From contig CBDDOY010000002.1 of assembly GCA_965232165.1 (NCBI GenBank), positions 479,478 through 543,477 of the forward strand: DNA of 64,000 nucleotides. The letters are read 5' to 3'. Shown here piece after piece: positions 4,223-51,480 of the stretch (the stretch's first letter is position 1; every line of letters starts with the position of its first letter). This stretch comes from Spirochaetaceae bacterium (GTDB lineage: Bacteria; Spirochaetota; Spirochaetia; DSM-2461). The translations under genes and the position numbers were made by a program. Below the pieces are notes generated by a model. The model ran no database searches and was not told the DNA's origin. It saw only the letters and a program-made list of their open reading frames with translations.

Positions 4223-4270
4223 GTGAAGTCTGATAAACTCCTGCATAATTTTTTAAGGAGGTTTATAGTT

Positions 4271-7200
4271 ATGAATCAATTAACAAGAGCGATACCCCTA
4301 GTGGCGCTCGTCGGATTTCTCGTCCTCATTGGATTGGGAGGCTGTCCCGCAGCAAGTGAGGGATTGAGTGATCAGGAATCGGTTGCTGCTGATAAGGCCG
4401 CACTAGTCATTGGCTACGCAGGTACAGACAGCGCAGCTTCGGTAACCCAGGCATTGACCCTGCCGACTTCCGGAGACAGCGGAACCGTCATAACGTGGGC
4501 CAGCGGCATGACCGATGTCATCGACAATGCCGGAACGGTTACCCGCCCGGATGTTAATGGTGCCGATACGTCTGTCACTCTCACCGCGACGATAACAAAG
4601 AATAATGAAAGCGACACACAGGTCTTCTTCCTGCAGGTTCTAAAAGCTCTGAACGATGCCGATTCGGTAGCTGCTGATAAGGCCGCACTGGTCATTGGCT
4701 ATGCGGGTACAGACAACGAAAATTCGGTAACCCAGGATTTGACCCTGCCAGGTACCGGATCCAACGGAACCACTATAGCGTGGGCCAGCAGCGTGACCGC
4801 CGTTATCGACAATGCCGGAACGGTTACCCGCCCGGCTGCTGATACTAACAATGAGTTTGTCACTCTCACCGCGACGATAACAAAGAATAGTGTAAGCGAC
4901 ACAAAGACCTTCACCCTGACGGTTAAAAAAGAGGCCGGCCTAAGCGATGCCGATTCGGTTGCTGCTGATAAGGCCGCACTAGTCATTGGCTACGCAGGTA
5001 CAGACAGCGCAGCTTCGGTAACCCAGGCATTGACCCTGCCGACTTCCGGAGACAGCGGAACCGTCATAACGTGGGCCAGCGGCATGACCGATGTCATCGA
5101 CAATGCCGGAACGGTTACCCGCCCGGATGTTAATGGTGCCGATACGTCTGTCACTCTCACCGCGACGATAACAAAGAATAATGAAAGCGACACACAGGTC
5201 TTCTTCCTGCAGGTTCTAAAAGCTCTGAACGATGCCGATTCGGTAGCTGCTGATAAGGCCGCACTGGTCATTGGCTATGCGGGTACAGACAACGAAAATT
5301 CGGTAACCCAGGATTTGACCCTGCCAGGTACCGGATCCAACGGAACCACTATAGCGTGGGCCAGCAGCGTGACCGCCGTTATCGACAATGCCGGAACGGT
5401 TACCCGCCCGGCTGCTGATACTAACAATGAGTTTGTCACTCTCACCGCGACGATAACAAAGAATAGTGAAAGCGACACAAAGACCTTCACCCTGACGGTT
5501 AAAAAAGCTCTGAGCGATGCCGATTCGGTAGCTGCTGATAAGGCCGCACTGGTCATTGGCTATGCGGGTACAGACAACGAAAATTCGGTAACCCAGGATT
5601 TGACCCTGCCAGGTACCGGATCCAACGGAACCACTATAGAGTGGGCCAGCAATGTGCCCGGCGTCATCGACAATGCCGGAACGGTTACCCGCCCGGCTGC
5701 TGATACTAACAATGAGTTTGTCACTCTCACCGCGACGATAACAAAGAATAATGAAAGCGACACACAGGTCTTCTTCCTGCAGGTTCTAAAAGAGTCCGAC
5801 CTAAGCGATGCCGATTCGGTAGCTGCTGATAAGGCCGCACTGGTCATTGGCTATGCGGGTACAGACAACGAAAATTCGGTAACCCAGGATTTGACCCTGC
5901 CAGGTACCGGATCCAACGGAACCACTATAGCGTGGGCCAGCAGCGTGACCGCCGTTATCGACAATGCCGGAACGGTTACCCGCCCGGCTGCTGATACTAA
6001 CAATGAGTTTGTCACTCTCACCGCGACGATAACAAAGAATAGTGAAAGCGACACAAAGACCTTCACCCTGACGGTTAAAAAAGCTCTGAGCGATGCCGAT
6101 TCGGTAGCTGCTGATAAGGCCGCACTGGTCATTGGCTATGCGGGTACAGACAACGAAAATTCGGTAACCCAGGATTTGACCCTGCCAGGTACCGGATCCA
6201 ACGGAACCACTATAGAGTGGGCCAGCAATGTGCCCGGCGTCATCGACAATGCCGGAACGGTTACCCGCCCGGCTGCTGATACTAACAATGAGTTTGTCAC
6301 TCTCACCGCGACGATAACAAAGAATAATGAAAGCGACACACAGGTCTTCTTCCTGCAGGTTCTAAAAGAGTCCGACCTAAGCGATGCCGATTCGGTAGCT
6401 GCTGATAAGGCCGCACTAGTCATTGGCTATGCGCAAGGAGATGACGCATCTTCGGTAACCCAGGATTTGACCCTGCCAGGTACCGAATCCAGCGGAACCA
6501 CTATAACGTGGGCCAGCGATGTGCACGACGTCATCGACATTGCCGGAGCGGTTACCCGCCCGGCTGCTGATACTTACAATAAGCTTGTCACTCTCACCGC
6601 GACAATAGAAAAGAATGGTGTAAGCGACACAAAGATCTTCACCCTGACGGTTCTAAAAGAGGCCGTAAGCAATGCCGATTCGGTTATGACTGATAAGGCC
6701 GCACTGGTCATTGGCTATGCGGGTACAGACAACGAAAATTCGGTAACCCAGGATTTGACCCTGCCAGGTACCGGATCCAACGGAACCACTATAGAGTGGG
6801 CCAGCAATGTGCCCGGCGTCATCGACAATGCCGGAACGGTTACCCGCCCGGATGTTAATGCTGCCGATGCGACTGTCACTCTCACCGCGACAATAAAAAA
6901 GAATGGTGAAAGCGGCACAAAGACCTTCACCCTGACGGTTCTAAAAGCTCTGAACGATGCCGATTCGGTAGCTGCTGATCAGGCCGCACTAGTCATTGGC
7001 TATGCGCAAGGAGATGACGCATCTTCGGTAACCCAGGATTTGACCCTGCCAGGTGCCGGAGCCAGCGGAACCGTCATAACGTGGTCCAGCGACAAAACCG
7101 CCGTCATCACCGTTGCCGGAGTGGTTACCCGCCCGGCTGCTTACGCTGCCGATGAGTCTGTCACTCTCACCGCGACGATAACAAAGAATGGTGTAACCGC

Positions 7201-7795
7201 CACAAAGGCCTTCACCCCGTTGGTCGTGAAAGCCCTAAAACAAGAGAAGATGTTTCTAATTGCCAGCGATGGTACTGATCCAAGTGATTCGATTCCTGAT
7301 CGTGGGACTGGTTCCCATACTTGGGTTAGAGGAACCGAAATCACACTAAATTCTGATGTTGGTGCGGCAGTTGATTCCTCTACTGGTGGGAATGAAGGTA
7401 TAACGAACGCTACTGGTGAGTTGATTCCCCCAATAGATGAGCAGAAGTACACTGGATTGGCACTACATCTTGGCAATTTTGAGGGTGGCCATTATAAAAT
7501 TCTTGATGGAGGTGCTGGAATAGCTTTGAGTTACACATTTTCAAAACCTGTTTCTGTAATATCAACAGAAATATATACTCGAGAGATTAGTGCTCCGACA
7601 AGAGGAGAAGGATGGAAAATAAAACTATTGGATAAGGATGATAATACTCTCGCTGAAAGTGACCAGGGACCTGGAACTTACACATTCCCTACGAAGATTG
7701 AGGGGGTCAAGCGATTGCAATTATATATATTTGCTATGACTGATCCTCAGAACATCATGCAATTTAATTTTATCAATGCACTAATAGAGTTCTAG
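4271..7795 (+). CDS. Large surface lipoprotein with 10 tandem ~95-aa Ig-like repeats and a unique C-terminal domain
   Basis: RBS AAGGAGG precedes the ATG at 4271. Signal peptide with lipobox LGGC. Repeats read SDADSVAADKAAL.IGYA..D....VTQDLTLP..G..GT.I.W.S....VI...G.VTRP.....VTLTATITK (bacterial Ig-like by inference). Confidence 0.85.
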   Translation: MNQLTRAIPLVALVGFLVLIGLGGCPAASEGLSDQESVAADKAALVIGYAGTDSAASVTQALTLPTSGDSGTVITWASGMTDVIDNAGTVTRPDVNGADTSVTLTATITKNNESDTQVFFLQVLKALNDADSVAADKAALVIGYAGTDNENSVTQDLTLPGTGSNGTTIAWASSVTAVIDNAGTVTRPAADTNNEFVTLTATITKNSVSDTKTFTLTVKKEAGLSDADSVAADKAALVIGYAGTDSAASVTQALTLPTSGDSGTVITWASGMTDVIDNAGTVTRPDVNGADTSVTLTATITKNNESDTQVFFLQVLKALNDADSVAADKAALVIGYAGTDNENSVTQDLTLPGTGSNGTTIAWASSVTAVIDNAGTVTRPAADTNNEFVTLTATITKNSESDTKTFTLTVKKALSDADSVAADKAALVIGYAGTDNENSVTQDLTLPGTGSNGTTIEWASNVPGVIDNAGTVTRPAADTNNEFVTLTATITKNNESDTQVFFLQVLKESDLSDADSVAADKAALVIGYAGTDNENSVTQDLTLPGTGSNGTTIAWASSVTAVIDNAGTVTRPAADTNNEFVTLTATITKNSESDTKTFTLTVKKALSDADSVAADKAALVIGYAGTDNENSVTQDLTLPGTGSNGTTIEWASNVPGVIDNAGTVTRPAADTNNEFVTLTATITKNNESDTQVFFLQVLKESDLSDADSVAADKAALVIGYAQGDDASSVTQDLTLPGTESSGTTITWASDVHDVIDIAGAVTRPAADTYNKLVTLTATIEKNGVSDTKIFTLTVLKEAVSNADSVMTDKAALVIGYAGTDNENSVTQDLTLPGTGSNGTTIEWASNVPGVIDNAGTVTRPDVNAADATVTLTATIKKNGESGTKTFTLTVLKALNDADSVAADQAALVIGYAQGDDASSVTQDLTLPGAGASGTVITWSSDKTAVITVAGVVTRPAAYAADESVTLTATITKNGVTATKAFTPLVVKALKQEKMFLIASDGTDPSDSIPDRGTGSHTWVRGTEITLNSDVGAAVDSSTGGNEGITNATGELIPPIDEQKYTGLALHLGNFEGGHYKILDGGAGIALSYTFSKPVSVISTEIYTREISAPTRGEGWKIKLLDKDDNTLAESDQGPGTYTFPTKIEGVKRLQLYIFAMTDPQNIMQFNFINALIEF
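4366..7235 (+). repeat. Intragenic tandem repeat, ten 285-291 bp units with 576-bp higher-order duplication
   Basis: Near-identical DNA at a 576-bp offset: 4381 vs 4957, 4647 vs 5223, 5508 vs 6084. Confidence 0.95.
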
Positions 7796-8634: not shown

Positions 8635-9678
8635 CTATGATTGGTTCGGTTTTCCCTCTCCAAGAAGTTCCTTTATACCGCCCAGAGATGAAAGAATCCC
8701 CGATGCTTCAAATGGAAGGTACACTACCTTGCTGTCTTTTCCAGACACCATCTGTTTTAAGGTGTCGATGTAGCGGATGGCCACCATGTAATTGACGGGA
8801 TCGCCTTTTGGGTCAAGGGACTCGGAGATAATTCTGATCGCTTCGGCCTCGGCATCGGCAACCTGTATTCTGGCCTTGGCCTCGCCTTCTGCCTGCAGGA
8901 TGGCGGCCTGTTTCAATCCTTCTGCCTTATTCACTTCTGCTTCCCGGAATCCTTCGGCCTCCAGAATACTCGCCTTCTTCTCACCCTCGGCGACTAGAAT
9001 GGCCGCTCTGCGATCCCGCTCCGCCCGCATCTGTTTCTCCATTTGATCACGAATATCCTCCGGGGGATTGATATCCTGTAATTCAACCCTGTTCACCTTT
9101 ACGCCCCACTTATCCGTGGCATCGTCGAGGATGGTTCGCAGTTTTGTGTTGATTGTGTCACGGGAGGTGAGACTTTCATCCAATTCCAATTCGCCTAAGA
9201 CGTTTCGGAGCGTTGTTTGAGTCAGTTTTTCGATGGCGTCCGGCAGGTTGGCAATTTCGTAAACAACCTTCACCGGGTCCGTGATCTGGAAATACAGAAG
9301 GGCATTGATCCCAATGCTCACATTATCTTTGGTAATGACATTCTGCTTCAGAAAATCGTAAACCTGTTCCCGCAAATCAATGTTCGAGGTTTCTTTCGTA
9401 ATAACGGCCCTCCTTTGGGCTACGTCGATCTTTTGGTAGTGCCACTGGATAGGCCTGGGGCGGTCTATAATGGGCCAAATTATGTTGATTCCGCTTTGCA
9501 GGGTGCGGTGGTAGTATAATGGGCCAAATTATGTTGATTCCGCTTTGCAGGGTCGGTGGTAGTTTCCTAGGCGTTCAATGACCATCGTCTCCGCCTGTCT
9601 TGCGATTTTGAATCCTTTCAGGGTGAGTATTGCAACGAACAGCAGTACTGCTCCTGCTATAATTATTCCACTTTCCAC
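8635..9678 (-). pseudogene. SPFH/band 7 (stomatin/QmcA-like) protein interrupted by a tandem duplication
   Basis: RBS GAGGAG and GTG start at 9678 give MESGIIIAGAVLLFVAILTLKGFKIARQAETMVIERLG. C-terminal QTTLRNVLGELELDE, KWGVKVNRVELQDINPP, AERDRRA. Premature stop inside the duplication at ~9524. Confidence 0.85.
9467..9563. repeat. 49/48-bp direct tandem duplication inside the SPFH gene
   Basis: ATAATGGGCCAAATTATGTTGATTCCGCTTTGCAGGGT(G)CGGTGGTAGT at 9467-9515 and 9516-9563. The second copy lacks one G. Confidence 0.95.
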
Positions 9679-10230: not shown

Positions 10231-11526
10231 TTAACTCCACTTTCCCATATCCAGTTCTTTTTCGCTTTTCGCCACCAGTACGGCTCCGGTCATATCCCCG
10301 GTGACGTTTACCGCTGTCCGTCCCATATCGAGGATGGCGTCGATTCCAAGAATCATGGCGTAGGCGGCGGCTACCGGTGTGCCCGCTTCCACGGGGAGAC
10401 CCACCGAATTCAGCACCATCAGGAGCATAATGGCTCCGGCCCCCGGTACTCCGGCGGTTCCAATAGAGGCCAGCACAGCGGTTAATATAACCGTAATCTG
10501 CTGCCCGAAGGTGAGGGGCATTCCGATGGCCAGTCCGATGAAGACGGCGCATACACCCTGATAGATCGCGGTGCCGTCCATATTGATGGTGGCCCCCAGG
10601 GGGAGGGTAAAGGAGTAGACTTTTTTATTCACCCCCAGGTTGGCATCCACACTGTTCATCGTTACCGGGAGGGTGCCGCTGCTGCTCCGGGTTACAAAGG
10701 CGGTTATAATCGCTTCCCTGGTCCCTCTGAAAAACCGTCCGGGGTTCAGGTTGTTCAGCATCAGCAGGCCAAAATAAACCACGACACAATGGAGGATATA
10801 GCCGATGTAGGAGGTGAGAGTCACCATTCCGAGAGCACCGATGGCTGCGGCTCCTTGTTTCGCGAATACCACCGCGATTAAGGCGAAAACGCCGACCGGG
10901 GCGTATTGGAGGATCCAGCGGACCACCATATACATAGTTTCTGCAGCACCGTCAAAAAAGGAGTAGAGCACCTCTCCTCCCTTTTGTTTTTTAGTATCTC
11001 TGCTTTCTTTCAAAAAGGCGATTCCTATTCCGAAGATAATGGAGAAGAAGATGACCGGCAGCACCTGCCCGTTGGTAATGGCGGAAAAGGGATTTTTCGG
11101 CACAATATTCAGCAGGGTATCTTTGAAGGCGGGCTTGATCAGCTCTCTTCCCGCCACGTCGGCAGCCGTTCCCAGAGCCAATCCCGCTCCCGGTCTGAAT
11201 AGGTTGGCCAGGAGCAGACCGATCGCCACGGCAAAAGCGGATGTGAAGAAATAGAATACGATAATTTTTATCCCCACCCGGCCGAGTTCTTTCGGGCTGA
11301 TGCTGGCAGCCCCGACAATAAGGGTAGAGAGGATAACCGGCAGAACAATCATTTTGAGCAGTCTGATAAAGAGGCTGCCCAGAGGATTCAGCCAGAGGAT
11401 TGATTCTCCGAAGATGATTCCGACGATGGCTCCCAAGATAAGACCGATTAGAATACGGAGCAGCAGATTGGATTTAAAATACCAGTCCATAGCCCCTTTT
11501 TTTCCGGGGGTGCTTGTGTTACTCAT
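10231..11526 (-). CDS. Dicarboxylate/amino acid:cation symporter (DAACS, GltP/GltPh-like)
   Basis: FVTRSSSGTLP, LPLGATINMDGT, LASIGTAGVPGAG and DMGRTAVNVTGD motifs. Confidence 0.93.
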   Translation of the reverse strand: MSNTSTPGKKGAMDWYFKSNLLLRILIGLILGAIVGIIFGESILWLNPLGSLFIRLLKMIVLPVILSTLIVGAASISPKELGRVGIKIIVFYFFTSAFAVAIGLLLANLFRPGAGLALGTAADVAGRELIKPAFKDTLLNIVPKNPFSAITNGQVLPVIFFSIIFGIGIAFLKESRDTKKQKGGEVLYSFFDGAAETMYMVVRWILQYAPVGVFALIAVVFAKQGAAAIGALGMVTLTSYIGYILHCVVVYFGLLMLNNLNPGRFFRGTREAIITAFVTRSSSGTLPVTMNSVDANLGVNKKVYSFTLPLGATINMDGTAIYQGVCAVFIGLAIGMPLTFGQQITVILTAVLASIGTAGVPGAGAIMLLMVLNSVGLPVEAGTPVAAAYAMILGIDAILDMGRTAVNVTGDMTGAVLVAKSEKELDMGKWS

Positions 11527-40943: not shown

Positions 40944-41007
40944 GACAATGTCTGTCAGACTCCTAGACCAATAATGAATAGTTGAGATATGCTTATAAAA
41001 TCTGTTT

Positions 41008-41172
41008 GCCGACAGTGTTCTGATTTCTAGAACCTAAGAGGGAATCCGGTGAGAATCCGGAACGATCCCGTCACTGTGATTTGGGCAAGGTTCACCTTAT
41101 TGCCACTGTTCCGAATGTGGAATGGGAAGGCGGTGGACGCATACCAATAAGTCAGGAGACCTGCTAATCGGC
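41008..41172 (+). ncRNA. Cobalamin (AdoCbl) riboswitch
   Basis: AAGAGGGAATCCGGTGAGAATCCGGAACGATCCCGTCACTGT, GCCACTG, GGGAAGGC and AAGTCAGGAGACCTGC (B12 box), upstream of cbiK-btu. Confidence 0.92.
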
Positions 41173-41264
41173 GTATCACAGATAACACTCTTCGAGGAGA
41201 GAGGTGTTATCCTGGATTTCTAATCCGAAGACCCATCTCCTCCAAAGAAAGAATTGGAGGCTCA

Positions 41265-42128
41265 ATGCGACACAGAATGCTCCCCCTTCTTCCCATAGTT
41301 CTCGGTGTTATCAATATGCCGGGCTGCACCCCGAAGAAGTCATCGGAACCCGTGATTCTTATAGCGGCATTCGGCAGCAGTTATGAGAGGGGCTTGGGAA
41401 ATCTCGCTGATTTCGACAGGGCTGTACGCTCGGCATTTCCCGGTAACGAAATCTATTGGGGTTTTTCGGCTTCCTTCATCGTAAAGAAGCTGCAAAACTT
41501 GGGTATTAAGACTCTCTTTGACTCTCAGGTGCCCTTGCTTGACATTGAGCAGGCTCTCTCCCATCTGCGTGCTCTGGGGAAATCAAAGGTTCTCGTCGTG
41601 AATTTTCTCATCATGAGAGGTGCAGAATACCGACAGATACTGAACACGCCGACTGCCGGTCTCAATGTCAAATATGTGCATCCCATCCTCTACTATGAAG
41701 AAAGTATTCAAAACACTGTGATGGCCTTGGAAGACTTGATAGCAGACGGCAAGGAGACGGCAACGATTTTCTGCGCGCACGGCAATGGCCGTGATATCCA
41801 ATATAACATCGAACTCGAATTATTAGACGAATATCTCAAGAGGAATTACCAAAACGCCTATTTGGTGAGTTTGGAAGGCACTCCCAGTTGGCCGCCGGTA
41901 CGGGATGCGGTTCTCGGCTCCGGCGTGAACCGTGTGCGTTTCGTTACCTTCATGCTGACTTCGGGTGATCATATGGCGAATGATGTCATGGGGGAAAGTC
42001 CTGAATCTTTCAGAAGGCAACTCGGTTTGTCCGCCGAATCCACCGACGGACTGGCCAGTATTCCCGAATTCCAACGGATGTTCATAGACCGGATGCATCA
42101 GGTGATGGCTCAGTTTGAGGGAATGTGA
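41265..42128 (+). CDS. cbiK: Sirohydrochlorin cobaltochelatase CbiK with a predicted lipoprotein signal
   Basis: LIAAFGSS, FCAHGN, SLEGTP, FMLTSGDHMANDVMG. N-terminal hydrophobic stretch ending MPGC. Confidence 0.85.
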   Translation: MRHRMLPLLPIVLGVINMPGCTPKKSSEPVILIAAFGSSYERGLGNLADFDRAVRSAFPGNEIYWGFSASFIVKKLQNLGIKTLFDSQVPLLDIEQALSHLRALGKSKVLVVNFLIMRGAEYRQILNTPTAGLNVKYVHPILYYEESIQNTVMALEDLIADGKETATIFCAHGNGRDIQYNIELELLDEYLKRNYQNAYLVSLEGTPSWPPVRDAVLGSGVNRVRFVTFMLTSGDHMANDVMGESPESFRRQLGLSAESTDGLASIPEFQRMFIDRMHQVMAQFEGM

Positions 42129-43180
42129 GAGCAGCGCTTCAGATAATTAGGCCGTCTCCTGATTTTCTCTTGGCGGCCTTGTTCTTACTCATTTCCGGCG
42201 GCATGATCATGGCCCTGGGCCGGCCGGAGTCCCGGGTTTCTCCAAGGGCTGTCATTCTTAACGATGTCGATGGGCGTGAGGTAGCGGTGGAACTGCCGGT
42301 CAATTCGCTGATTTCCTTGAATTCCGGATTGTCAGAGATTGTGGCAGCCCTGGATGCCGGTGGGCGCATCATAGGCCGGGACAGTTTCAGCAGCTTCCCC
42401 TCATTCCTGAATAAGATACCGGTGGTGGGCAGGAATTCATCGGGGGTGAGTATGGAAAGCATACTGGCCCTTCAGCCCGATCTCATATTGGCCGATGCGA
42501 TGTTCGATGAGAGTCATATTGAAATTCTTAGGAAACAGGGAATCCCTGTGATCATCGAATCCACAAGCAATCCGCTTCGGATTGCATTGATGGTAAGGAA
42601 TATGGGAAGAATTCTCCAGGTTGAAGAGAGGGCTCAGCACATTATCGCCGTTATAGATGAGATATTGGGGGAGGTTGATATGGCGGTGGAAGGACTCGGT
42701 CTCTCCGATGAAGAGAAGATGGCGGTGTTCTACGAAAACCGCAAACCGAACAAGAGCGCCTCCGCGTTAAGCGGGCACGATTTCTTCATCAGACATGCGG
42801 GAGGAATCAGCATCGCCGCAGATGAACCGGTAAGATTTCCCGAATTGAGCCCTGAGTACATCGCTGTGAGGAATCCCGATGTAATCATCCGCCGGGTCAG
42901 TGGTGACATCACCCGCAAAGCCATGGAATCCATGCGTCAGGACATCATGGCCAGGCCCAGCCTTCGGTCGGTGAATGCCGTCAAGAATCACCGGGTTCAT
43001 ATCGTGAAATCCGATCTTTTCATCTCCTTGAGATATCCGGTAGGCATCGCATACCTGGCCAAACTCTTTTATCCCGATAGTTTTGGACTGGACCCACAGA
43101 AGATGTACCGGCGCTATGTGACGATGCTCTACGGCGAAGAGGAGTGGGGGAGGATGGATGAGATATACGTCCATCCCTAA
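42125..43180 (+). CDS. btuF: Cobalamin/Fe-siderophore ABC transporter substrate-binding protein
   Basis: ESILALQPDLIL, EYIAVRNPDVII, AVKNHRV. Under B12 riboswitch control. Confidence 0.8.
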   Translation: MRAALQIIRPSPDFLLAALFLLISGGMIMALGRPESRVSPRAVILNDVDGREVAVELPVNSLISLNSGLSEIVAALDAGGRIIGRDSFSSFPSFLNKIPVVGRNSSGVSMESILALQPDLILADAMFDESHIEILRKQGIPVIIESTSNPLRIALMVRNMGRILQVEERAQHIIAVIDEILGEVDMAVEGLGLSDEEKMAVFYENRKPNKSASALSGHDFFIRHAGGISIAADEPVRFPELSPEYIAVRNPDVIIRRVSGDITRKAMESMRQDIMARPSLRSVNAVKNHRVHIVKSDLFISLRYPVGIAYLAKLFYPDSFGLDPQKMYRRYVTMLYGEEEWGRMDEIYVHP

Positions 43181-44222
43181 TACCGGCCTGATGCTCAGCA
43201 TCAGGAACCGTAGGCGCAAGAGACTCTTCGTACTTTTTGGTGCCTTCCTCGGCTTGATTCTTCTGGCGGTGCTATCGTCCGTTCTGGGTTCCGTCAAACT
43301 GAGTCCTGCGGAAATCTGGGTATTTATTAAGTCGGGTATATCAGGCCGGTATCCGAGTACTCTGCATTGGGGTAAATTCTCTGTCGTCTGGGATATCCGG
43401 CTGCCGCGCATTGTCATGGCCCTGTTTGCAGGAATGAGTTTGTCGCTGGGAGGAGCGGCCATGCAGGGCATTATGCGCAATCCCCTCGTGAGTCCCTACA
43501 CCTTGGGCATTTCCGCCGCTTCAGCCTTCGGGGCTTCTCTGGCCATTGTTCTGGGTTCTCCCGCATTCGTGATGCCGGCCGCCTTCATTTTTTCCCTGAT
43601 TTCGTTAATGCTTGTGCTGTTTTTCTGCCGTGGCGACCGGCTGCAGGCTGAAAGCCTGATTCTGACGGGAATCGCCGTTATGTTTATCTTCTCGGCGGGC
43701 ACCTCGCTTCTTCAATACCTCGCATCCCAGGATGAATTGGCGAGAATTGTGTTCTGGCTCATGGGTTCGTTAAGCTCTGCCACTTGGCCGAAGACCCTGG
43801 CGACGGCAGGCATCTCCATGATATCGTCTTTGCTGCTCTACACGTTTTCATGGCCGATGAATCTTCTCTCCTCGGGAGAGGAGAGCGCCATGAGCATGGG
43901 AGTCGATCCCCGAGTCCTGCGGATGAGGGTGATACTCATCGTCACGGGAATGACGGCGGTCATCGTAAGTCATACCGGCATCATCGGCTTCATCGGCCTG
44001 GCCGCACCCCATGTCGCCCGCATGCTGCTGGGCAGCGATCACAGGCTGCTGTTCCCGGCGGCGGCTGTTGCCGGGGCCTTTTTCCTGCTCGTTTCCGACA
44101 CGCTCGCCCGCTCCTTGCTGAGTCATACAGAGCTGCCCATCGGCATCATCACTTCCTTTCTCGGTGTTCCGTTTCTTATATCCATCCTGGCTAAACGCCG
44201 CAGGATGAGGAGTGTGCCGTGA
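43158..44222 (+). CDS. btuC: FecCD/BtuC-family ABC permease
   Basis: IRLPRIV, RNPLVSPYTLGISA, GIIGFIGLAAPHVAR, ELPIGIITSFLGVPF. Confidence 0.85.
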   Translation: MRYTSIPNTGLMLSIRNRRRKRLFVLFGAFLGLILLAVLSSVLGSVKLSPAEIWVFIKSGISGRYPSTLHWGKFSVVWDIRLPRIVMALFAGMSLSLGGAAMQGIMRNPLVSPYTLGISAASAFGASLAIVLGSPAFVMPAAFIFSLISLMLVLFFCRGDRLQAESLILTGIAVMFIFSAGTSLLQYLASQDELARIVFWLMGSLSSATWPKTLATAGISMISSLLLYTFSWPMNLLSSGEESAMSMGVDPRVLRMRVILIVTGMTAVIVSHTGIIGFIGLAAPHVARMLLGSDHRLLFPAAAVAGAFFLLVSDTLARSLLSHTELPIGIITSFLGVPFLISILAKRRRMRSVP

Positions 44223-44980
44223 ATATCAGGGTTCGAAATCTCAGCTTCGCCTACGGGAATTCACCCGTGCTCAATGACTTGAATTTCGATTGCGAATCGG
44301 GGCAGATCGTGGCTATTCTTGGTGAAAACGGCTCGGGTAAGTCAACATTGCTCGCCTTCCTAGCCGGACTCAAGGACTCCATTGCCGTCGAGTGGGACGG
44401 TCATGCCCCATCCTGCCAGTCCTTAGAGGAAAGGGCCTGTCTGCGCACCCTGGTGCCCCAGCATTCCGTCTTCGATGCGGCTATGCCGCTCTACGACTAC
44501 ATCCTCATGGGCCGAAAGCCCTGGTTCGGATGGAATGAGTCTTCCGGCGATCATCACATCGTTGCAGAGATGCTTCGACTGTTTGAGCTGACCGATCTGG
44601 CCTTTCGCCCTCTTTCGAATATCAGCGGAGGTGAGCGGAGGAAGGCCGTGCTGGCCCGGGCCTTCGCCCAGGACACTCCATTGCTTCTTCTGGATGAACC
44701 GCTGAACAATCTCGACTTGAGATTTCAGCTCAAGTTTCTCAACCTGCTTAAACGGCGCGCTGAAGACCCCGGCGTGCTCATTATCATCGTTTTGCACGAC
44801 ATCAATGCCGCCCTCAACTGCTGTGATTCGGCTGTGCTTTTAAGGGAAGGCCAGATTATTGCCCATGGCCCCATCGAAGAATCCATAACTGCAGAAACGG
44901 TGGAATCCATGTTGGGAGTAAAAGGTTCCTTCTATGAAATAGATGGAAGGCGGCAAATGGCGATGCCTGCAACAGTCTGA
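44219..44980 (+). CDS. btuD: ABC transporter ATP-binding protein
   Basis: GENGSGKST, ISGGERRK, LLLDEP, LHDIN. Confidence 0.88.
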   Translation: MNIRVRNLSFAYGNSPVLNDLNFDCESGQIVAILGENGSGKSTLLAFLAGLKDSIAVEWDGHAPSCQSLEERACLRTLVPQHSVFDAAMPLYDYILMGRKPWFGWNESSGDHHIVAEMLRLFELTDLAFRPLSNISGGERRKAVLARAFAQDTPLLLLDEPLNNLDLRFQLKFLNLLKRRAEDPGVLIIIVLHDINAALNCCDSAVLLREGQIIAHGPIEESITAETVESMLGVKGSFYEIDGRRQMAMPATV

Positions 44981-44990
44981 TGTCATGAGA

Positions 44991-45500
44991 CTATTTCTCG
45001 ATGCCCATCCGAGCCGGCACACCCGCCTGGAAATAATGTTTAACGACCTGCATTTCGGTTACCAAATCGGCCCGCTGTATCAGGCTCTGCGGCGCACCCC
45101 GACCGGTGCAGATCACTTCCATGGACTGGGGCCGCAAATCCAGCAGGCCGTGGAATTCATTTTCATCCACCAGGGCGCAGCTAAGCGCAACATTGATTTC
45201 ATCCAGTATCAGGATATCGGAACCGGCATGGACGAATTGCCGCCGCATCTCGCCCAAACCCCGCCGGGACGAAGCAATGTCTGCTTGGGAAACCGGTCTT
45301 CCAAACAAGACACCACTGCCGAATTGACTCACCTTCACACCGATTTTCCTCAGCATCGCCGTTTCCGAACTTGGTTTGTTCTTGATGAATTGGATGAGAT
45401 GAACCCGAAGATTGACGCCTCTGGCCCTGAGCGCCAGTCCGAAGGCCGCCGTGGATTTACCCTTGCCGTCACCGGTGTACACTTGGAGATATCCTAGCAT
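44991..45500 (-). CDS. cobO: Cob(I)yrinic acid a,c-diamide adenosyltransferase (CobO/BtuR), antisense to its operon
   Basis: MLGYLQVYTGDGKGKSTAAFG, IQFIK, LILDEIN, CTGRGAP, ADLVTEM..VKHYFQAG.PARMGIE. Confidence 0.93.
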   Translation of the reverse strand: MLGYLQVYTGDGKGKSTAAFGLALRARGVNLRVHLIQFIKNKPSSETAMLRKIGVKVSQFGSGVLFGRPVSQADIASSRRGLGEMRRQFVHAGSDILILDEINVALSCALVDENEFHGLLDLRPQSMEVICTGRGAPQSLIQRADLVTEMQVVKHYFQAGVPARMGIEK

Positions 45501-46473
45501 GGAAGACATACTAGCACATATTGCGTTTCATGTATTGGCGCTGACCTCTGCGGGAGCACTGGACTGTATGCTGGGCGATGCACCGACTCAATTCCATCCG
45601 GTGGGATGGATGGGGAAGGGTATCGCGTTTTTATGGTCAAAAAGACCTCATGGCGCCCGTATGCGTCTCTTCCTGTGGGGCCTCTTCATTGTCATCTTCG
45701 GCCTTGCCGTGACACTCGTCTTAACCTGGCCGCTTCAATGGCTGCTTAAGTCCGGCAGAGAAATTTCGGCTGCCGCCGCGGTCTTCATCATGGCCATCTT
45801 ATTCAAACCCAGTTTTTCGATAAGAGGATTGATTCGGGGGGCACGGCAGGTGGAAAAGGCCATCAATACGGGAGACATTGAATCGGCCCGTCTGCTCACG
45901 GAGACGAATTTGGTAAGCCGATCTCTCGATGGGGCGGATTCGTCATACATTGCCTCTGCGGCAATTGAATCTCTGAGCGAGAATTTTACCGACAGCATTG
46001 CAGGCCCGTCGCTGTTCTTCCTGTTAGGCGGACTCCCCGGCGCATGGGCTTACCGCTTCGTCAACACGGCAGATGCGATGTTAGGCTATCATGGCGGACA
46101 GCACGAATGGGGAGGAAAGGCCGCCGCGAGACTCGACGATGTCTTCAATCTCTTCCCCGCCAGGATTTCAGGCATCATACTCATTGCGGCCGCCTATCTG
46201 CTCGGCTATGATGGCAGGGGAGCCCTGCGAATGATGAAACATGATTCGATGAAGTGTCTCAGCCCCAATTCCGGCTGGACCATGGCCGCGGCGGCCGGGG
46301 CTTTGGGGGTCAGGCTGGAGAAGCCCGGCTTCTATGTCCTCAATGACATGGGTCTAAGGCCCTCAGCAAACGATCTCCGAAGGGGCATCGTCCTTATTCT
46401 CGTCTCGATTGGCCTTTTGATGTTTCTGATAACGATACCGGTCATGACCGCCTGCATAATACTGAAGCCCTAG
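45499..46473 (+). CDS. cbiB: Adenosylcobinamide-phosphate synthase
   Basis: HPVGWMG, IESLSENFTD, YRFVNTADAMLGY, AARLDDVFN, SPNSGW.MAAAAGALGVRL. Confidence 0.93.
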   Translation: MEDILAHIAFHVLALTSAGALDCMLGDAPTQFHPVGWMGKGIAFLWSKRPHGARMRLFLWGLFIVIFGLAVTLVLTWPLQWLLKSGREISAAAAVFIMAILFKPSFSIRGLIRGARQVEKAINTGDIESARLLTETNLVSRSLDGADSSYIASAAIESLSENFTDSIAGPSLFFLLGGLPGAWAYRFVNTADAMLGYHGGQHEWGGKAAARLDDVFNLFPARISGIILIAAAYLLGYDGRGALRMMKHDSMKCLSPNSGWTMAAAAGALGVRLEKPGFYVLNDMGLRPSANDLRRGIVLILVSIGLLMFLITIPVMTACIILKP

Positions 46474-46474
46474 G

Positions 46475-47017
46475 ATGATTCTAATACTCGGCGGTATAAA
46501 AAGTGGAAAAAGCGCCTTCGCTGCCGCAATGGCCGAGAAGAGGGAGACTCTGGGGCCGATTGTTTACCTGGCTACGGCGCAGGCTGGCGACGAGGAAATG
46601 GCCGAACGCATTGATGCGCACCGAGCCAGAAGACCTGTTCACTGGCAGACCAGGGAGGAATCAACGGACCCGTCCAGAGTCTTCATTGACAACCTCGGCG
46701 CCAAGACCGTCATTCTTGATTGTGTGACGAATTGGCTCACCAATTTGATTTCCCATCTGAGCGATGAACCCAGTCGCAGCGAAGTGATCCGAATCGGCCG
46801 GAAAGCGGTGACCGGGCTGATAGCGGCCGTTGGGAAGTGGGAAAATCACGGCGGCAAGGCCCTGCTCGTCTCAAATCAGGTTGAGACAGGGCTCATCTCG
46901 CCCTGGCCCCTAGGCCGGTATTTTCAAGATCTGGCCGGTCTGACTCATCAGCAGATTGCCGAGGCGGCGGAGGCCGTATATCTGATTAATGCGGGTTTAC
47001 CGCTGAAAATAAAATAA
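46475..47017 (+). CDS. cobU: Bifunctional adenosylcobinamide kinase/phosphate guanylyltransferase
   Basis: LGGIKSGKS, DEEMAERIDAHRARRP, DCVTNWLTN, VSNQVETG. Confidence 0.93.
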   Translation: MILILGGIKSGKSAFAAAMAEKRETLGPIVYLATAQAGDEEMAERIDAHRARRPVHWQTREESTDPSRVFIDNLGAKTVILDCVTNWLTNLISHLSDEPSRSEVIRIGRKAVTGLIAAVGKWENHGGKALLVSNQVETGLISPWPLGRYFQDLAGLTHQQIAEAAEAVYLINAGLPLKIK

Positions 47018-47028
47018 GGACCGAGAAT

Positions 47029-48072
47029 ATGCGGTATCGATTAATAGATGAAATGGCTTTGAGCATAGCCCCGCTTGATGAAGAGGCAAAGCGGAAAGCG
47101 GTCTTGAGAATGAATTCCTTGCTAAAACCGCCTGGCTCCCTGGGCCGCCTGGAAGAACTCGGCATAATGCTGGCCGGCGTTCAGGGAAGGGAAAAACCCG
47201 TGGTGAATTCCAAACTCTCCCTTATTTATGCCGCCGATCACGGGGTGACGGCCGAATCTGTTTCGACGGTGCCGTCTGCCGTGACGGGTGTTATGGTGAG
47301 GGCCTTCTGCTCTGGAAAGGCCGGTATCAATGTACTCGCACGGCAGGCCGGAGCGCGTATCCGGGTGATTGATATCGGCATTGCCAACGACTATGCCATA
47401 CCAGACGAGGTCATACTTCGCCGTATCCGCCGAGGTACCGGCAATATGCGCATTGAGGAAAGCATGACCAGGGAAGAAGCGATACTGGCGATTTCCACTG
47501 GTATAGAAACAGCGGCAGGCGAAGTCCGCGCTGCCGGAGCACAGGTGGTTGGGGTAGGGGAGATGGGCATAGGTAATACAACCTCGGCGGCAGCCCTAAC
47601 GGCCGTGTTTACAGGCAGGGATCCAGCCGAAGTTACCGGCACTGGAACAGGGCTTGATGATGCCGGTTTAGAACGGAAGATACGAATCATCAGGGAAGCC
47701 TGCCTGCTTCATCGGCCGGATCCCCAGGATCCGATTGGCGTACTTTCAAAAATCGGCGGACTGGAAATTGCCGCCATGGCCGGAGCGATGGTGGGAGCCG
47801 CATCGGAAGGCGCTCTAGTATTGATCGATGGATTTATCAGCGGCACGGCTGCCCTTATCGCCATACAAATGGCTCCGGCTCTGCGCGACAGGGTGGTCTT
47901 GAGCCATTTATCGTTAGAACCCGGGCATGGAGTGATCGCCCGAAGACTGGGACTCATACCCCTTCTGGATTTGGGGCTTAGGCTGGGGGAGGGAACCGGC
48001 GCCGCGCTTGCCATGAATCTTGTCGAATCCTCGGCGGCCTTACTCAGTGAAATGGGCACGTATGAATTGTGA
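47029..48072 (+). CDS. cobT: Nicotinate-nucleotide--dimethylbenzimidazole phosphoribosyltransferase
   Basis: KPPGSLGRLEE, AADHGV, GEMGIGNTT, GGLEIA, LRLGEGTGA. Confidence 0.95.
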   Translation: MRYRLIDEMALSIAPLDEEAKRKAVLRMNSLLKPPGSLGRLEELGIMLAGVQGREKPVVNSKLSLIYAADHGVTAESVSTVPSAVTGVMVRAFCSGKAGINVLARQAGARIRVIDIGIANDYAIPDEVILRRIRRGTGNMRIEESMTREEAILAISTGIETAAGEVRAAGAQVVGVGEMGIGNTTSAAALTAVFTGRDPAEVTGTGTGLDDAGLERKIRIIREACLLHRPDPQDPIGVLSKIGGLEIAAMAGAMVGAASEGALVLIDGFISGTAALIAIQMAPALRDRVVLSHLSLEPGHGVIARRLGLIPLLDLGLRLGEGTGAALAMNLVESSAALLSEMGTYEL

Positions 48073-48384
48073 ATTATCTGCCTGAGCGGTACACGCAGAC
48101 AGGTGATTTCATCTCTGAGTGCCGGCCGGGCGGTGAATCCACAAGTCAAATTGGCCGCTTTCCGAGAAATCGGCAGACCAGCCCAGTGCTCCTGCTCACC
48201 GGCCTTAGGCGAGGATTTAAGCAGTAGGAGATCTAAGCCAGATGCTAGCCTGTCGGGGAATTTGCCTTATGGCCCCAATTTCCGGTTTATCCGCAGATGA
48301 ACGCAGTGCGGAAATTTCTTGAACCACGAATGGCCATGAATGGATACGAATTGTTGTTTTGACCGCAGATAAGACACGGATTGT

Positions 48385-51105
48385 TTTGCACGATGTCTTC
48401 ATAAAAATTTATGAGCATTGAACTTTCGTGTCTTTCGCTGTTGAAATCCTTCCGTGTATTCCGTGTGTTCTGTGGTTAAATCCGCAAGATGAACGCCGAT
48501 GGAATGCTTTGGACGGCTTCATAGAAGACTCATGAGTATCAGCTTTTCGTGTTTTTCGTGCTTTTCGCGGTTGAAAACCTTCCGTGTATTCCGTGTGTTC
48601 TGTGGTTAAATCCGCAAGATGAACGCCGATGGAATGCTTTGGACGGCTTCATAGAAGACTCATGAGTATCAGCTTTTCGTGTTTTTCGTGCTTTTCGCGG
48701 TTGAAAACCTTCCGTGTGTTTCGTGGTCAAATCCGCAGATGGCACCGATGGATGCCGATGGAGTACTTGGGACGGCTTCATAGAAGACTCGCGTGTATCT
48801 GCTTTTCGTGTTTTTCGTGCTTTTCGCGGTTGAAAACCTTCCGTGTGTTCCGTGTGTTCTGTGGTTAAATCCGCAAGATGAACGCCGATGGAATGTTTTG
48901 GACGGCTTCATAGAAGACTCATGAGTATCAGCTTTTCGTGTTTTTCGTGCTTTTCGCGGTTGAAAACCTTCCGTGTGTTCTGTGGTTGAATCCGCCGATT
49001 GCGCCGATGGACGCAGATGGAGTACTTTGGACGGCTTCATAGAAGACTCATGAGTATCAGCTTTTCGTGTTTTTCGTGCTTTCCGTGGTTGAAAACCTTC
49101 CGTGTATTCCGTGTGTTCCGTGGTTAAACCCGCAAGATGAACGCCGATGGAATGCTTTGGACGGCTTCATAGAAGACTCATGAGTATCAGCTTTTCGTGT
49201 TTTTCGTGCTTTCCGTGGTTGAAAACCTTCCGTGTGTTCTGTGGTTAAATCCGCAAGATGAACGCCGATGGAATGCTTTGGACGGCTTCATAGAAGACTC
49301 ATGAGTATCAGCTTTTCGTGTTTTTCGTGCTTTTCGCGGTTGAAAACCTTCCGTGTATTCCGTGTGTTCTGTGGTTAAATCCGCAAGATGAACGCCGATG
49401 GAATGTTTTGGACGGCTTCATAGAAGACTCATGAGTATCAGCTTTTCGTGTTTTTCGTGGTTGAAAACCTTCCGTGTGTTCTGTGGTTGAATCCGCCGAT
49501 TGCGCCGATGTTCTGTGGTTAAATCCGCAAGATGAACGCCGATGGAAACGGCTTCATAGAAGATTCGCGTGTATCAGCTTTTCGTGTTTTTCGTGGTTGA
49601 AAACCTTCCGTGTGTTCCGTGGTTGAACGATTGCGCCGATGGACGCAGATGGAGTACTTTGGACGGCTTCATAGATGACTCATGAGTATCAGCTTTTCGT
49701 GTTTTTCGTGCTTTTCGTGGTTGAAAACCTTCCGTGTATTCCGTGTGTTCCGTGGTTAAATCCGCAAGATGAACGCCGATGGAATGTTTTGGACGGCTTC
49801 ATAGAAGATTCGCGTGTATCAGCATTTCGTGTTTTTCGTGCCTTTCGTGGTTAAATCCGCAGATGATGCCGATGGACGCCGATGGAGTACTTGGAACGGC
49901 TTCATAGAAGACTCATGAGTATCAGCTTTTCGTGTTTTTCGTGGTTGAAAACCTTCCGTGTATTCCGTGTGTTCCGTGGTTAAACCCGCAAGATGAACGC
50001 CGATGGAATGCTTTGGACGGCTTCATAGAAGACTCATGAGTATCAGCTTTTCGTGTTTTTCGTGTTTTTCGTGCTTTTCGTGGTTGAAAACCTTCCGTGT
50101 ATTCCGTGTGTTCTGTGGTTGAATCCGCAAGATGAACGCCGATGGAATGTTTTGGACGGCTTCATAGAAGACTCATGAATATCAGCTTTTCGTGTTTTTC
50201 GTGCTTTTCGCGGTTGAAAACCTTCCGTGTGTTCTGTGGTTAAATCCGCAAGATGAACGCCGATGGAATGCTTTGGACGGCTTCATAGAAGACTCGCGTG
50301 TATCAGCTTTTCGTGTTTTTCGTGCTTTTCGTGGTTGAAAACCTTCCGTGTATTCCGTGTGTTCTGTGGTTAAATCCGCAAGATGAACGCCGATGGAATG
50401 TTTTGGACGGCTTCATAGAAGACTCGCGTGTATCAGCTTTTCGTGTTTTTCGTGCTTTTCGCGGTTGAAAACCTTCCGTGTATTCCGTGTGTTCTGTGGT
50501 TAAATCCGCAAGATGAACGCCGATGGAATGTTTTGGACGGCTTCATAGAAGACTCGCGTGTATCAGCTTTTCGTGTTTTTCGTGCTTTTCGCGGTTGAAA
50601 ACCTTCCGTGTATTCCGTGTGTTCTGTGGTTAAATCCGCAAGATGAACGCCGATGGACGCAGATGGAGTACTTTGGACGGCTTCATAGAAGACTCATGAG
50701 TATCAGCTTTTCGTGTTTTTCGTGTTTTTCGCGGTTGAAAACCTTCCGTGTATTCCGTGTGTTCTGTGGTTAAATCCGCAAGATGAACGCCGATGGAATG
50801 TTTTGGACGGCTTCATAGAAGACTCATGAATATCAGCTTTTCGTGTTTTTCGTGCTTTCCGTGGTTGAAAACCTTCCGTGTGTTCTGTGGTTAAATCCGC
50901 AAGATGAACGCCGATGGAATGTTTTGGACGGCTTCATAGAAGACTCATGAGTATCAGCTTTTCGTGTTTTTCGTGCTTTTCGTGGTTGAAAACCTTCCGT
51001 GTGTTCCGTGTGTTCTGTGGTTAAATCCGCAAGATGAACGCCGATGGAATGTTTTGGACGGCTTCATAGAAGACTCATGAATATCAGCTTTTCGTGTTTT
51101 TCGCG
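48385..51105. repeat. Non-coding tandem array, 21 units of ~130 bp plus a degenerate first unit
   Basis: Anchor GGACGGCTTCATAGAAG recurs at 48511, 48641, 48770, 48900, 49029, 49159, 49280, 49410, ~49547, 49661, 49791, ~49894, 50015, 50154, 50275, 50405, 50535, 50675, 50805, 50926, 51056. Confidence 0.95.
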
Positions 51106-51406
51106 AAGGAAGGCACACAGAAGTAACAGGCCCATTTACCAGGCCGTGCTGGGCCTATGGCTGCCCAGAATTTGGGATACAGGAAAAGACACAGCTTTCT
51201 CCGTCCACCGTGAATTCCTGCTATGCGATCCGAAGCCTCTGAGATTCATCAAGGGGGGCATCGGTCAGAAGCGAAACCGCTTTTGCTCCTACACAGAATA
51301 TATCCGGATCATGAATCTGGAAACCGAATTGCCTCGTTAACCAAATATGGGTTCTATTGCATGGTCCTGAATCGATGGGTTATTATACTCCTATTGACGG
51401 ATTAAC

Positions 51407-51480
51407 GGGTGAATAGCTCAGTTGGTTAGAGCGTCGGCTTTACACGCCGGAAGTCCTGGGTTCGAGTCCCAGTTCGCCCA
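51407..51480 (+). tRNA. tRNA-Val (anticodon TAC)
   Basis: Acceptor GGGTGAA/TTCGCCC, D-arm TAGCTCAGTTGGTTAGAGC, anticodon loop CTTACAC, T-loop GGTTCGAGTCC. CCA is not encoded. Confidence 0.93.

Follow-up and report, generated by a model that had tools for sequence, protein, structure and literature searches.

The 64,000-nt stretch of Spirochaetaceae bacterium DNA analyzed here (assembly GCA_965232165.1, contig CBDDOY010000002.1, positions 479,478 to 543,477; hereafter the window, whose own numbering is used throughout) contains a 2.7-kb non-coding tandem array. It is located between a 347-aa open reading frame (ORF; 47029–48072), taken to encode a putative cobT-like product, and tRNA-Val(TAC) (51407–51480), which is followed by murG. 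An earlier interpretation made from the letters alone, referred to as the sequence-only reading, had correctly placed the array upstream of tRNA-Val. The array is built from units of approximately 130 bp, in which a core is followed by three arms (B, C, and D) composed of short tandem repeats, and its left border contains further arms of the opposite polarity. The features of the locus are as follows.

48289–48318, plus strand: D-type arm ATCCGCAGATGAACGCAG, then TGCGGAAATTTC, at the left border (direct reading of the sequence).
48319–48353, plus strand: inverted A/C-type arm TTGAACC-ACGAATGGCC-ATGAATGGAT-ACGAATTG (TTGAACCACGAATGGCCATGAATGGATACGAATTG), of the partner type of the B arms.
48362–48387, plus strand: second inverted arm ACCGCAGATAAGACACGGATTGTTTT at the left border, partner of the C arms.
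48388–48512, plus strand: putative degenerate founder copy ("unit 0"), with a core-like segment (CTTCATAAAAATTTATGAGCATTGAAC), a decayed B arm, and then C and D arms.
48513–51057, plus strand: 20 full units (Tandem Repeats Finder, anchor split, and unit alignment).
Opening each full unit, plus strand: core ACGGCTTCATAGAAGACTCATGAGTATCAGC, 31 nt.
After the core of each full unit, plus strand: B arm (TTTTCGTGY)2–4, closed by GGTTGAAAACC.
After the B arm, plus strand: C arm (TTCCGTGTR)1–2, then TTCTGTG, closed by GGTTAAATCC.
After the C arm, plus strand: D arm, decamers GCAAGATGAA-CGCCGATGGA, with an optional CGCAGATGGA.
After the D arm, plus strand: linker ATGYTTTGG, closing the unit.
51058–51105, plus strand: truncated final unit, consisting of the core and two and a half B repeats (anchor split).
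51129–51145, minus strand: the single terminator-like hairpin observed, at the right border (consensus match only).

Tandem Repeats Finder delimits the array at 48459–51103 with a period of 130 and 20.8 copies (score 2776), and reports a second period of 251. Cutting at the anchor ACGGCTTCATAGA yields the 20 full units and a truncated unit of 48 nt, arranged head to tail, in agreement with the 21 units counted before, and the recomputed consensus is identical to the 130-bp consensus of the sequence-only reading. All segments of the 130-bp unit are found again in each of the units, which leaves no unique spacers, as had also been stated, and an array of clustered regularly interspaced short palindromic repeats (CRISPR) was rejected on this ground. 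The unit lengths are 130 bp (nine units), 121 bp (four), 129 bp (two), and 139, 140, 136, 115, and 103 bp (one each), and the identity of the individual units to the consensus ranges from 88 to 100%. Nested sub-repeats are present in each unit, of 9 bp in modules B and C and of 10 bp in module D. The proposed origin of the length variants from whole sub-repeats holds for the 121-, 139-, and 140-bp units, which display the clean loss or gain of one 9-bp or 10-bp sub-repeat, but the 129-, 136-, 115-, and 103-bp units are more complex, involving an alternative D module, an internal duplication, or the loss of module C. The core occurs in two alleles (CATGAG and CGCGTG) and the D module in two types, all intermingled along the array. 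Polar growth, as suggested previously, is only partly right: the left border (48289–48512) is degenerate, but unit 1 is exactly the consensus and the consensus-divergent units are 2, 4, 8, 9, and 11. Similarly, the reported T/G strand bias exists, although it is only moderate (T 891, G 679, C 514, and A 509 on the plus strand; T+G 60.5%). The array contains 19 copies of the terminus GGTTGAAAACC and 15 of GGTTAAATCC, and within the window its sub-motifs are confined to it. The longest ORF of the array, on the minus strand, has 123 aa. Such head-to-tail non-coding copies of a unit of 10–150 bp form a minisatellite, or variable-number tandem repeat (VNTR).

The arms connect the array with an unnamed class of repeats, defined in this analysis as tandem-repeat-armed hairpin elements, of which no description was found in the searchable literature. 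Arms of the class consist of 8–10-mers in tandem (CACGAAnn / nnTTCGTG) with the core TYYGYG / CRCRRA and AACC/GGTT ends, arranged as TTT-AACC-(ACGAAnnnC)n, loop, (GnnnTTCGT)n-GGTT-AAA, and the A/C partner is often situated upstream of the T/G arm. Complementary inverted arms are predicted to form a 20–30-bp stem around a short loop, a nested hairpin, or a GxxExxY (PDDEXK_3) gene. The loops range from 8 to approximately 250 nt, and nested hairpins with different arm types are present at loci L200 and L189. The arm types comprise CACGAAA/G/C/T, CACGGAT, CACAGAT, CGCAAAG, CGCGAAT, and CGCAGATGAA, the last of which is the D type of the window and is also seen at locus L124. The class pattern TTCGTGNNNTTCGTGGTTRAAAWYC, with 19 fixed and three two-fold positions, matches eight IMG/VR loci and at least 120 metagenome loci, and its chance expectation in the viral set is estimated at well under one match. 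Scanning genome contigs with GTTGAAAWCCTTCCGNGT, which has few fixed bases, yields 111 chance-like matches, of which L024 alone is real; in this Verrucomicrobiota metagenome-assembled genome (MAG), (TTYCGYGTA)n-GGTTGAAAACC modules form a chain, as in the window. The class occurs in Verrucomicrobiota, spirochaete relatives, a human-gut metagenome contig (at a guess, Bacteroidales), many environmental contigs, and virus-like contigs, the latter with several copies possible per contig and in both orientations. Rfam gives no match for 20 hairpin loci of the class, and a family-specific two-anchor pattern has no match in the JGI metagenomes.

Among the matches listed, 15 of 41 distinct arm pairs situated within 300 nt are at least 90% complementary over 24 nt, and arms from different elements agree on average at only 64%. 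The element-specific arm positions covary (GAAGAAC/GAAGAGC in L128, GAAGCTC in L130, GAACCAC in L160, and CGCAAAGA in L215), which argues for base-pairing rather than protein read-out as the constraint on the class. The GGTTAA end of the arms often provides the TAA stop of a neighboring gene. Furthermore, the class also chains into small tandem arrays among the matches listed, with units of 49 bp (L193, 8.8 copies), 171 bp (L165, 3.9 copies), 284 bp (L190, 3.4 copies), 33 bp (L187, 5.8 copies), 54 bp (L239, 4.6 copies), and 85 bp (L141, 3.1 copies).

Some arms of the class enclose a gene. At L127, the arms surround a 133-aa ORF matching TIGR04256 (GxxExxY, E = 1e-42), the first residues of which (MNHEKHERHEK) are encoded by the left arm; in the GxxExxY cassettes, the left arm sits in the 5′ untranslated region (UTR) or the first codons. 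Using jackhmmer, GxxExxY homologues were detected at nine of 120 arm-selected metagenome loci (among the matches listed) and at none of 111 control loci (Fisher's exact p = 0.0035), and PDDEXK_3, with five members, is the only recurring Pfam family in 85 small ORFs next to arms among the matches listed. The sequence-only reading had described CACGAA/CGCAGAT repeats as flanking GxxExxY and four-helix-bundle genes, usually in inverted pairs; the first part is borne out by these loci, but no four-helix-bundle gene lies next to arms in the sample, among the matches listed. The function of the PDDEXK_3/GxxExxY family has been listed as unknown since 2012 (PMC3424549).

Further repeats accompany some class loci. 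At L205 (1780–2900), two arm-bracketed GxxExxY cassettes are arranged in tandem, the second gene being split into two ORFs (2375–2578 and 2599–2829); whole cassettes thus duplicate head to tail and then decay. Immediately upstream of its arm chain, L024 also contains a tandem repeat of 16 nt (CTCTGCAGCCGTCCCG), and a 21-nt repeat in six copies (GTTGAGCGTTGAACGTTGAGC) is present as well (the two at 4630–4790 and 2000–2126). The virus-like IMG/VR contig L118 contains three copies of (TTTCGTGTN)2-TTTCGTGGTTAA at minus-strand coordinates 2493, 3031, and 10544, and at two of the three the TAA of the neighboring gene lies within GGTTAA. One L118 copy has the same 12 nt (TTCTTTCTCCCC) on both sides, hinting at target duplication; target-site duplications around the viral copies are inconsistent by eye, and this candidate was rejected. 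Promoters of a phage single-subunit RNA polymerase and stoperator-like sites were likewise rejected for the viral copies, which have mixed orientation relative to genes.

Judged by its sequence, the window array is a member of this class. Compared with L024 and L112–L241, its B (TTTTCGTGY), C (TTCCGTGTR), and D (GCAGATGRA-type) arms have the class arm pattern, and the arms end in GGTT(R)AAA with AACC before, the same termini as across the class. An inverted complementary partner is absent inside the array, which contains no inverted repeats; inverted partner arms, 77–88% complementary to B and C, are situated at the left border (48319–48387) alone. Since all B and C arms have one polarity and no partner inside, the hairpin is impossible in the array. 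The arm at 48319–48353 provides the single A/C-type terminus of the window and shows 88% complementarity to GCCTTTCGTGGTTAAA, a stretch of unit 11. For the arm at 48362–48387, complementarity to the beginning of each C arm is 77–82%, and the closest C arm is 56 nt off (48444–48460). The left-border D arm type recurs as AACCGCAGATGAACGCGAATGGAC in the unrelated locus L124. Because partner arms of opposite polarity are kept at 48289–48512, this segment looks like a decayed complete element, of which the array seemingly repeats only the right part together with the D arm.

The structure is best explained, at a probability of roughly 0.55, as a hyper-expanded minisatellite that is specific to the lineage and arose from a single member of the tandem-repeat-armed hairpin class. 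A resident single copy of the hairpin-type interspersed repeat would have been amplified by unequal recombination and replication slippage; the duplicated segment would run from a left-type arm (D) through a centre of 38 nt to a pair of right-type arms (B and C), leading to approximately 21 copies head to tail. Each unit would represent an empty cassette with no cargo and non-matching arms, concerted evolution would homogenize the array, and transcription would probably be only passive, read-through out of the operon upstream being one possible route. Indels of whole sub-repeats, together with the interspersed unit variants, fit slippage and unequal exchange between close direct repeats. Base-pairing ability, the probable working principle of the class, is lost in the array, so a dedicated function is not indicated; with hairpin formation unavailable to its copies, the array is most probably a by-product, either inert or selfish. 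Its most likely identity is therefore an amplified repeat of selfish or neutral character rather than an RNA gene or a protein-docking site. Among the options named by the sequence-only reading, the amplified selfish repeat is the best supported, given the anatomy, the arm-class membership, the lack of pairing, and the lack of a function-type signal, and its view that no named class accommodates the array continues to hold.

The 130-bp array is lineage-specific. In the relatives L120, L121, and L242, the order tRNA-Val–murG–holB–histidine kinase (HisKA)–sigma-54 regulator is kept and the array is absent; the best-matching MurG proteins, named as Spirochaetes MAGs, share no more than 66% identity. 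Positions in the array have a k-mer depth 11–46 times that of the flanks in two short-read samples from this strain, and many array copies therefore exist, the exact number of 21 resting on the assembly. Partial array-type copies are also present on other contigs of this strain (short-read unitigs), and a marine-sediment RNA contig (run X5, record 2) contains a dispersed B'-39 nt-C hairpin directly after an apparent gene end; thus, the lineage also carries ordinary class members.

Several points weigh against a lineage-specific minisatellite without a dedicated function. The k-mer mass suggests that the genome holds more copies than the array does and that the repeat family is active or favored. 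A relative of the array exists in another genome, represented by the protein P0001 (64% identity in translation, on a 2.12-Mb contig), hinting at persistence or recurrence. Bacterial deletion bias would not be expected to spare a neutral repeat of 2.7 kb. In three independent marine-sediment metatranscriptomes, the array-specific core is covered by contigs of 84–151 nt at 95–99% identity (run X5, 151 nt matched with two mismatches; run X7, 136 nt with seven; run X8, 84 nt with one), and these contigs might reflect abundant RNA. Finally, of the source genome, the analysis covers the 64-kb window.

The alternative that survives best, itself rather improbable, is a protein-binding array, in which the nonamer and decamer arms would bind a class-recognizing factor (e.g., a GxxExxY nuclease) and serve as a sink, decoy, nucleation, or centromere-like site. 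More than 100 regularly spaced short direct repeats are consistent with such a role, as is the association of the class with a nuclease-fold protein family, and recognition by a protein could underlie the conservation across phyla of the class core CRCRRA and its AACC/GGTT ends. However, jackhmmer detects no GxxExxY homologue among the ORFs of the 64-kb window, the whole window has no parS match (TGTTNCACGTGAAACA-like palindrome) with up to three mismatches, the array has no perfect DnaA box (TTWTNCACA), and no initiator or partition gene adjoins it. Twelve one-mismatch DnaA boxes are found in the array, all derived from TGTGGTTAA at the C-arm end. In addition, the 9-bp spacing puts successive sites on different faces of the helix, and the covarying arm positions point to base-pairing rather than protein read-out. 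The iteron- or centromere-like character and the helical-turn spacing put forward by the sequence-only reading have no positive support, as there is no parS site, perfect DnaA box, or adjacent initiator or partition gene, and a 9-bp phasing is not helical. Iterons of a replication origin were also rejected on the flanks (a riboswitch-led gene row on one side and tRNA-Val/murG on the other) and on the periods of 9, 10, and 130 bp. A blastn search of four units against plasmids and phages gave no match, and the GC skew across the window is uninformative on the proximity of the origin or terminus.

A functional repetitive RNA, that is, a long unstructured transcript acting as a sponge or trans-regulator, is still less probable, and the same low standing applies jointly to its two variants. 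In one, the U/G-rich arms would act as antisense against A/C-rich arms located near the 5′ ends of cassette mRNAs; in the other, the repeated GGA motifs would titrate an RNA-binding protein. The metatranscriptome contigs speak for such an RNA, particularly as the genes flanking the array are not seen in runs X5, X7, and X8. Likewise, no plus-strand terminator-like site lies between the 347-aa ORF and the array, the single-polarity composition keeps the RNA unfolded, and the left arm of the GxxExxY cassettes lies in the 5′ UTR or first codons. However, sigma-70-like promoter sites number zero on both strands of the array (3.7 expected), and the contigs could be residual DNA favored by the high copy number. 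Neither covariation nor structure supports the RNA: two-unit folds are no better than shuffles (z = +0.31 on the plus strand and +1.25 on the minus strand), and the array has no Rfam match at the gathering threshold or at E ≤ 5, so the structured repetitive non-coding RNA proposed earlier gains nothing from folding or Rfam. Moreover, no target cassette was identified in this genome, of which the 64-kb window was covered. Intrinsic terminators and sigma-70 promoters were rejected as the identity of the array itself, in which a consensus scan found no such sites.

Given that nothing terminator-like stands on the plus strand between the upstream ORF and the array, array RNA is most simply explained by read-through. 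A cobalamin riboswitch at 40996–41183 (113.6 bits) heads a same-strand gene row (41265–48072) that ends just before the array, which could be reached by read-through of this riboswitch-regulated operon. Meanwhile, the putative minus-strand hairpin at the right border would block minus-strand transcription entering the array from the right.

A further possibility, speculative and marginally weaker than the RNA, extends the analogy with RAYT transposases and their REPIN elements. The arms would be cis-acting pairing or recognition modules of an uncharacterized cross-phylum mobile cassette system, the autonomous members of which would carry PDDEXK_3 (GxxExxY) nucleases, and the array would be either a chain of empty cassettes assembled through successive insertions or duplications at the junctions of GGTT with AACC or a trans-acting antisense or decoy locus restraining the cassettes.

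An assembly artefact, in which the assembler inflated a short repeat, is highly unlikely. The short-read unitigs do break at both array borders, and their joints link non-adjacent units, but the depth of 11–46 times the single-copy flanks in two samples, the flanks matching the window with zero differences in unitigs of the same strain, and the many unit variants backed by unitigs at 99% identity or more argue against inflation. The joints between non-adjacent units differ between samples X1 and X2, a signal that either copy-number polymorphism of the array or copies elsewhere in the genome could give. Least credible of all are tandem small-peptide genes encoding a basic peptide of 32–40 aa per unit on the minus strand (MKPSKTFHRRSSCGFNHRTHGIHGRFSTAKSTKNTKS). 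Fifteen of the 21 units keep an intact copy of this ORF, to which the sequence-only reading had not drawn attention, and the 9-bp indels preserve the frame. However, the ATG has no Shine-Dalgarno sequence, the frame shifts wherever the alternative D module is present, the differences visible between units are all replacements (T/A, R/G, I/T, K/E, and A/T), the sole database match, P0001, is another array read in mixed frames, and a six-frame concatenated protein query of four units has no match.

Several known systems resemble the array or its parent class, but there are significant differences from each. Like the parent class, the repetitive extragenic palindromic (REP) sequences, bacterial interspersed mosaic elements (BIME), and REPINs of proteobacteria with RAYT transposases are short interspersed extragenic hairpin repeats at gene ends, which can form tandem clusters and are linked to a small nuclease-type gene thought to mobilize them. 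However, the arms here are 8–10-nt tandem repeats with AACC/GGTT ends, the associated gene is PDDEXK_3/GxxExxY rather than a Y1 transposase, and the window array has one polarity and cannot fold. The array was rejected as REP/BIME/REPIN since its unit is not a stem-loop palindrome, as the fold scores and the lack of inverted repeats within the array indicate. BOX elements of Streptococcus pneumoniae (boxA-boxB(n)-boxC) are dispersed single elements folding into stable RNA; they share the modular non-coding structure with an internal module of variable copy number, but in the array it is the composite unit in its entirety that occurs 21 times, and it lacks structure. The cyanobacterial short tandemly repeated repetitive (STRR) heptamers are intergenic tandem blocks of 7–10-mers dispersed around the genome, with unknown function. 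They resemble the array as intergenic blocks of tandem short-mers; they are not known to form paired inverted arms with GGTT/AACC ends or a 130-bp higher-order unit.

Mycobacterial interspersed repetitive unit (MIRU)-VNTR loci and other bacterial minisatellites are likewise head-to-tail intergenic repeats of 40–130 bp with slippage size variants, but the present array, with approximately 21 units over 2.7 kb and nested sub-repeats, is much larger than typical. The intervening sequences of 23S rRNA belong with the stem-bracketed small ORFs, and their stem can be cut by RNase III. The parent class resembles them, as in it a small GxxExxY gene is enclosed by long complementary arms, but the window array encloses no gene and has no rRNA context, and, as stated above, the sampled arms adjoin no four-helix-bundle gene. 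Integron cassettes resemble the array in being a cassette-like chain joined at GTTRRRY-like junctions (GGTTAAAT and GGTTGAAT), and in related loci stops often lie in the junction. However, the units are empty and have no imperfect palindrome, no integrase was seen next to the array (no intI search was made), and attC identity was rejected because the unit has no foldable palindrome. Plasmid and phage iterons and repeat-type centromeres also consist of many short direct repeats in one orientation, but the array has no adjacent rep or par gene, a 9/10-bp spacing, and no parS site.

The region upstream of tRNA-Val is evidently a landing zone for repeats, and the tRNA-Val–murG neighborhood appears to be a repeat-insertion hotspot. 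In L120, the closest relative, approximately nine CCTCCGTG(N) repeats ending in AGAAACC are located upstream of tRNA-Val (2043–2125), and the opposite strand of this block reads as ten Shine-Dalgarno-like CACGGAGG motifs. A different element of approximately 150 nt with terminal inverted repeats (GGCACCTCTAAAAA ... TTTTTAGAGGTRCC) is situated on both sides of tRNA-Val in the spirochaete relative L242 (7520–7690 and 7840–7998) and once, upstream, in L120 (2210–2380). The contig L243 starts only 215 bp upstream of murG, and no tRNA-Val is visible by eye in bases 1–215; the assembly may have broken there at a repeat occupying the position that the array has in the window. Elsewhere in the window, a 285-bp tandem repeat (4379–7217; 9.9 copies, 85% identity) lies inside an ORF of 1190 aa (4223–7795), presumably encoding a repeated 95-aa protein domain, and a 49-bp direct duplication (9466–9563; 2.0 copies, 98% identity) is intergenic, between an ORF ending at 9375 and an ORF starting at 10231.

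Arrays of this kind break short-read assemblies and yield spurious ORFs, and P0001 is one such ORF already present in public databases. Meanwhile, an odd bacterial "satellite" is linked to a repeat class that is easily found, and this parent class deserves description. The class also provides a concrete handle on the PDDEXK_3/GxxExxY family, whose genes sit within complementary tandem-repeat arms.

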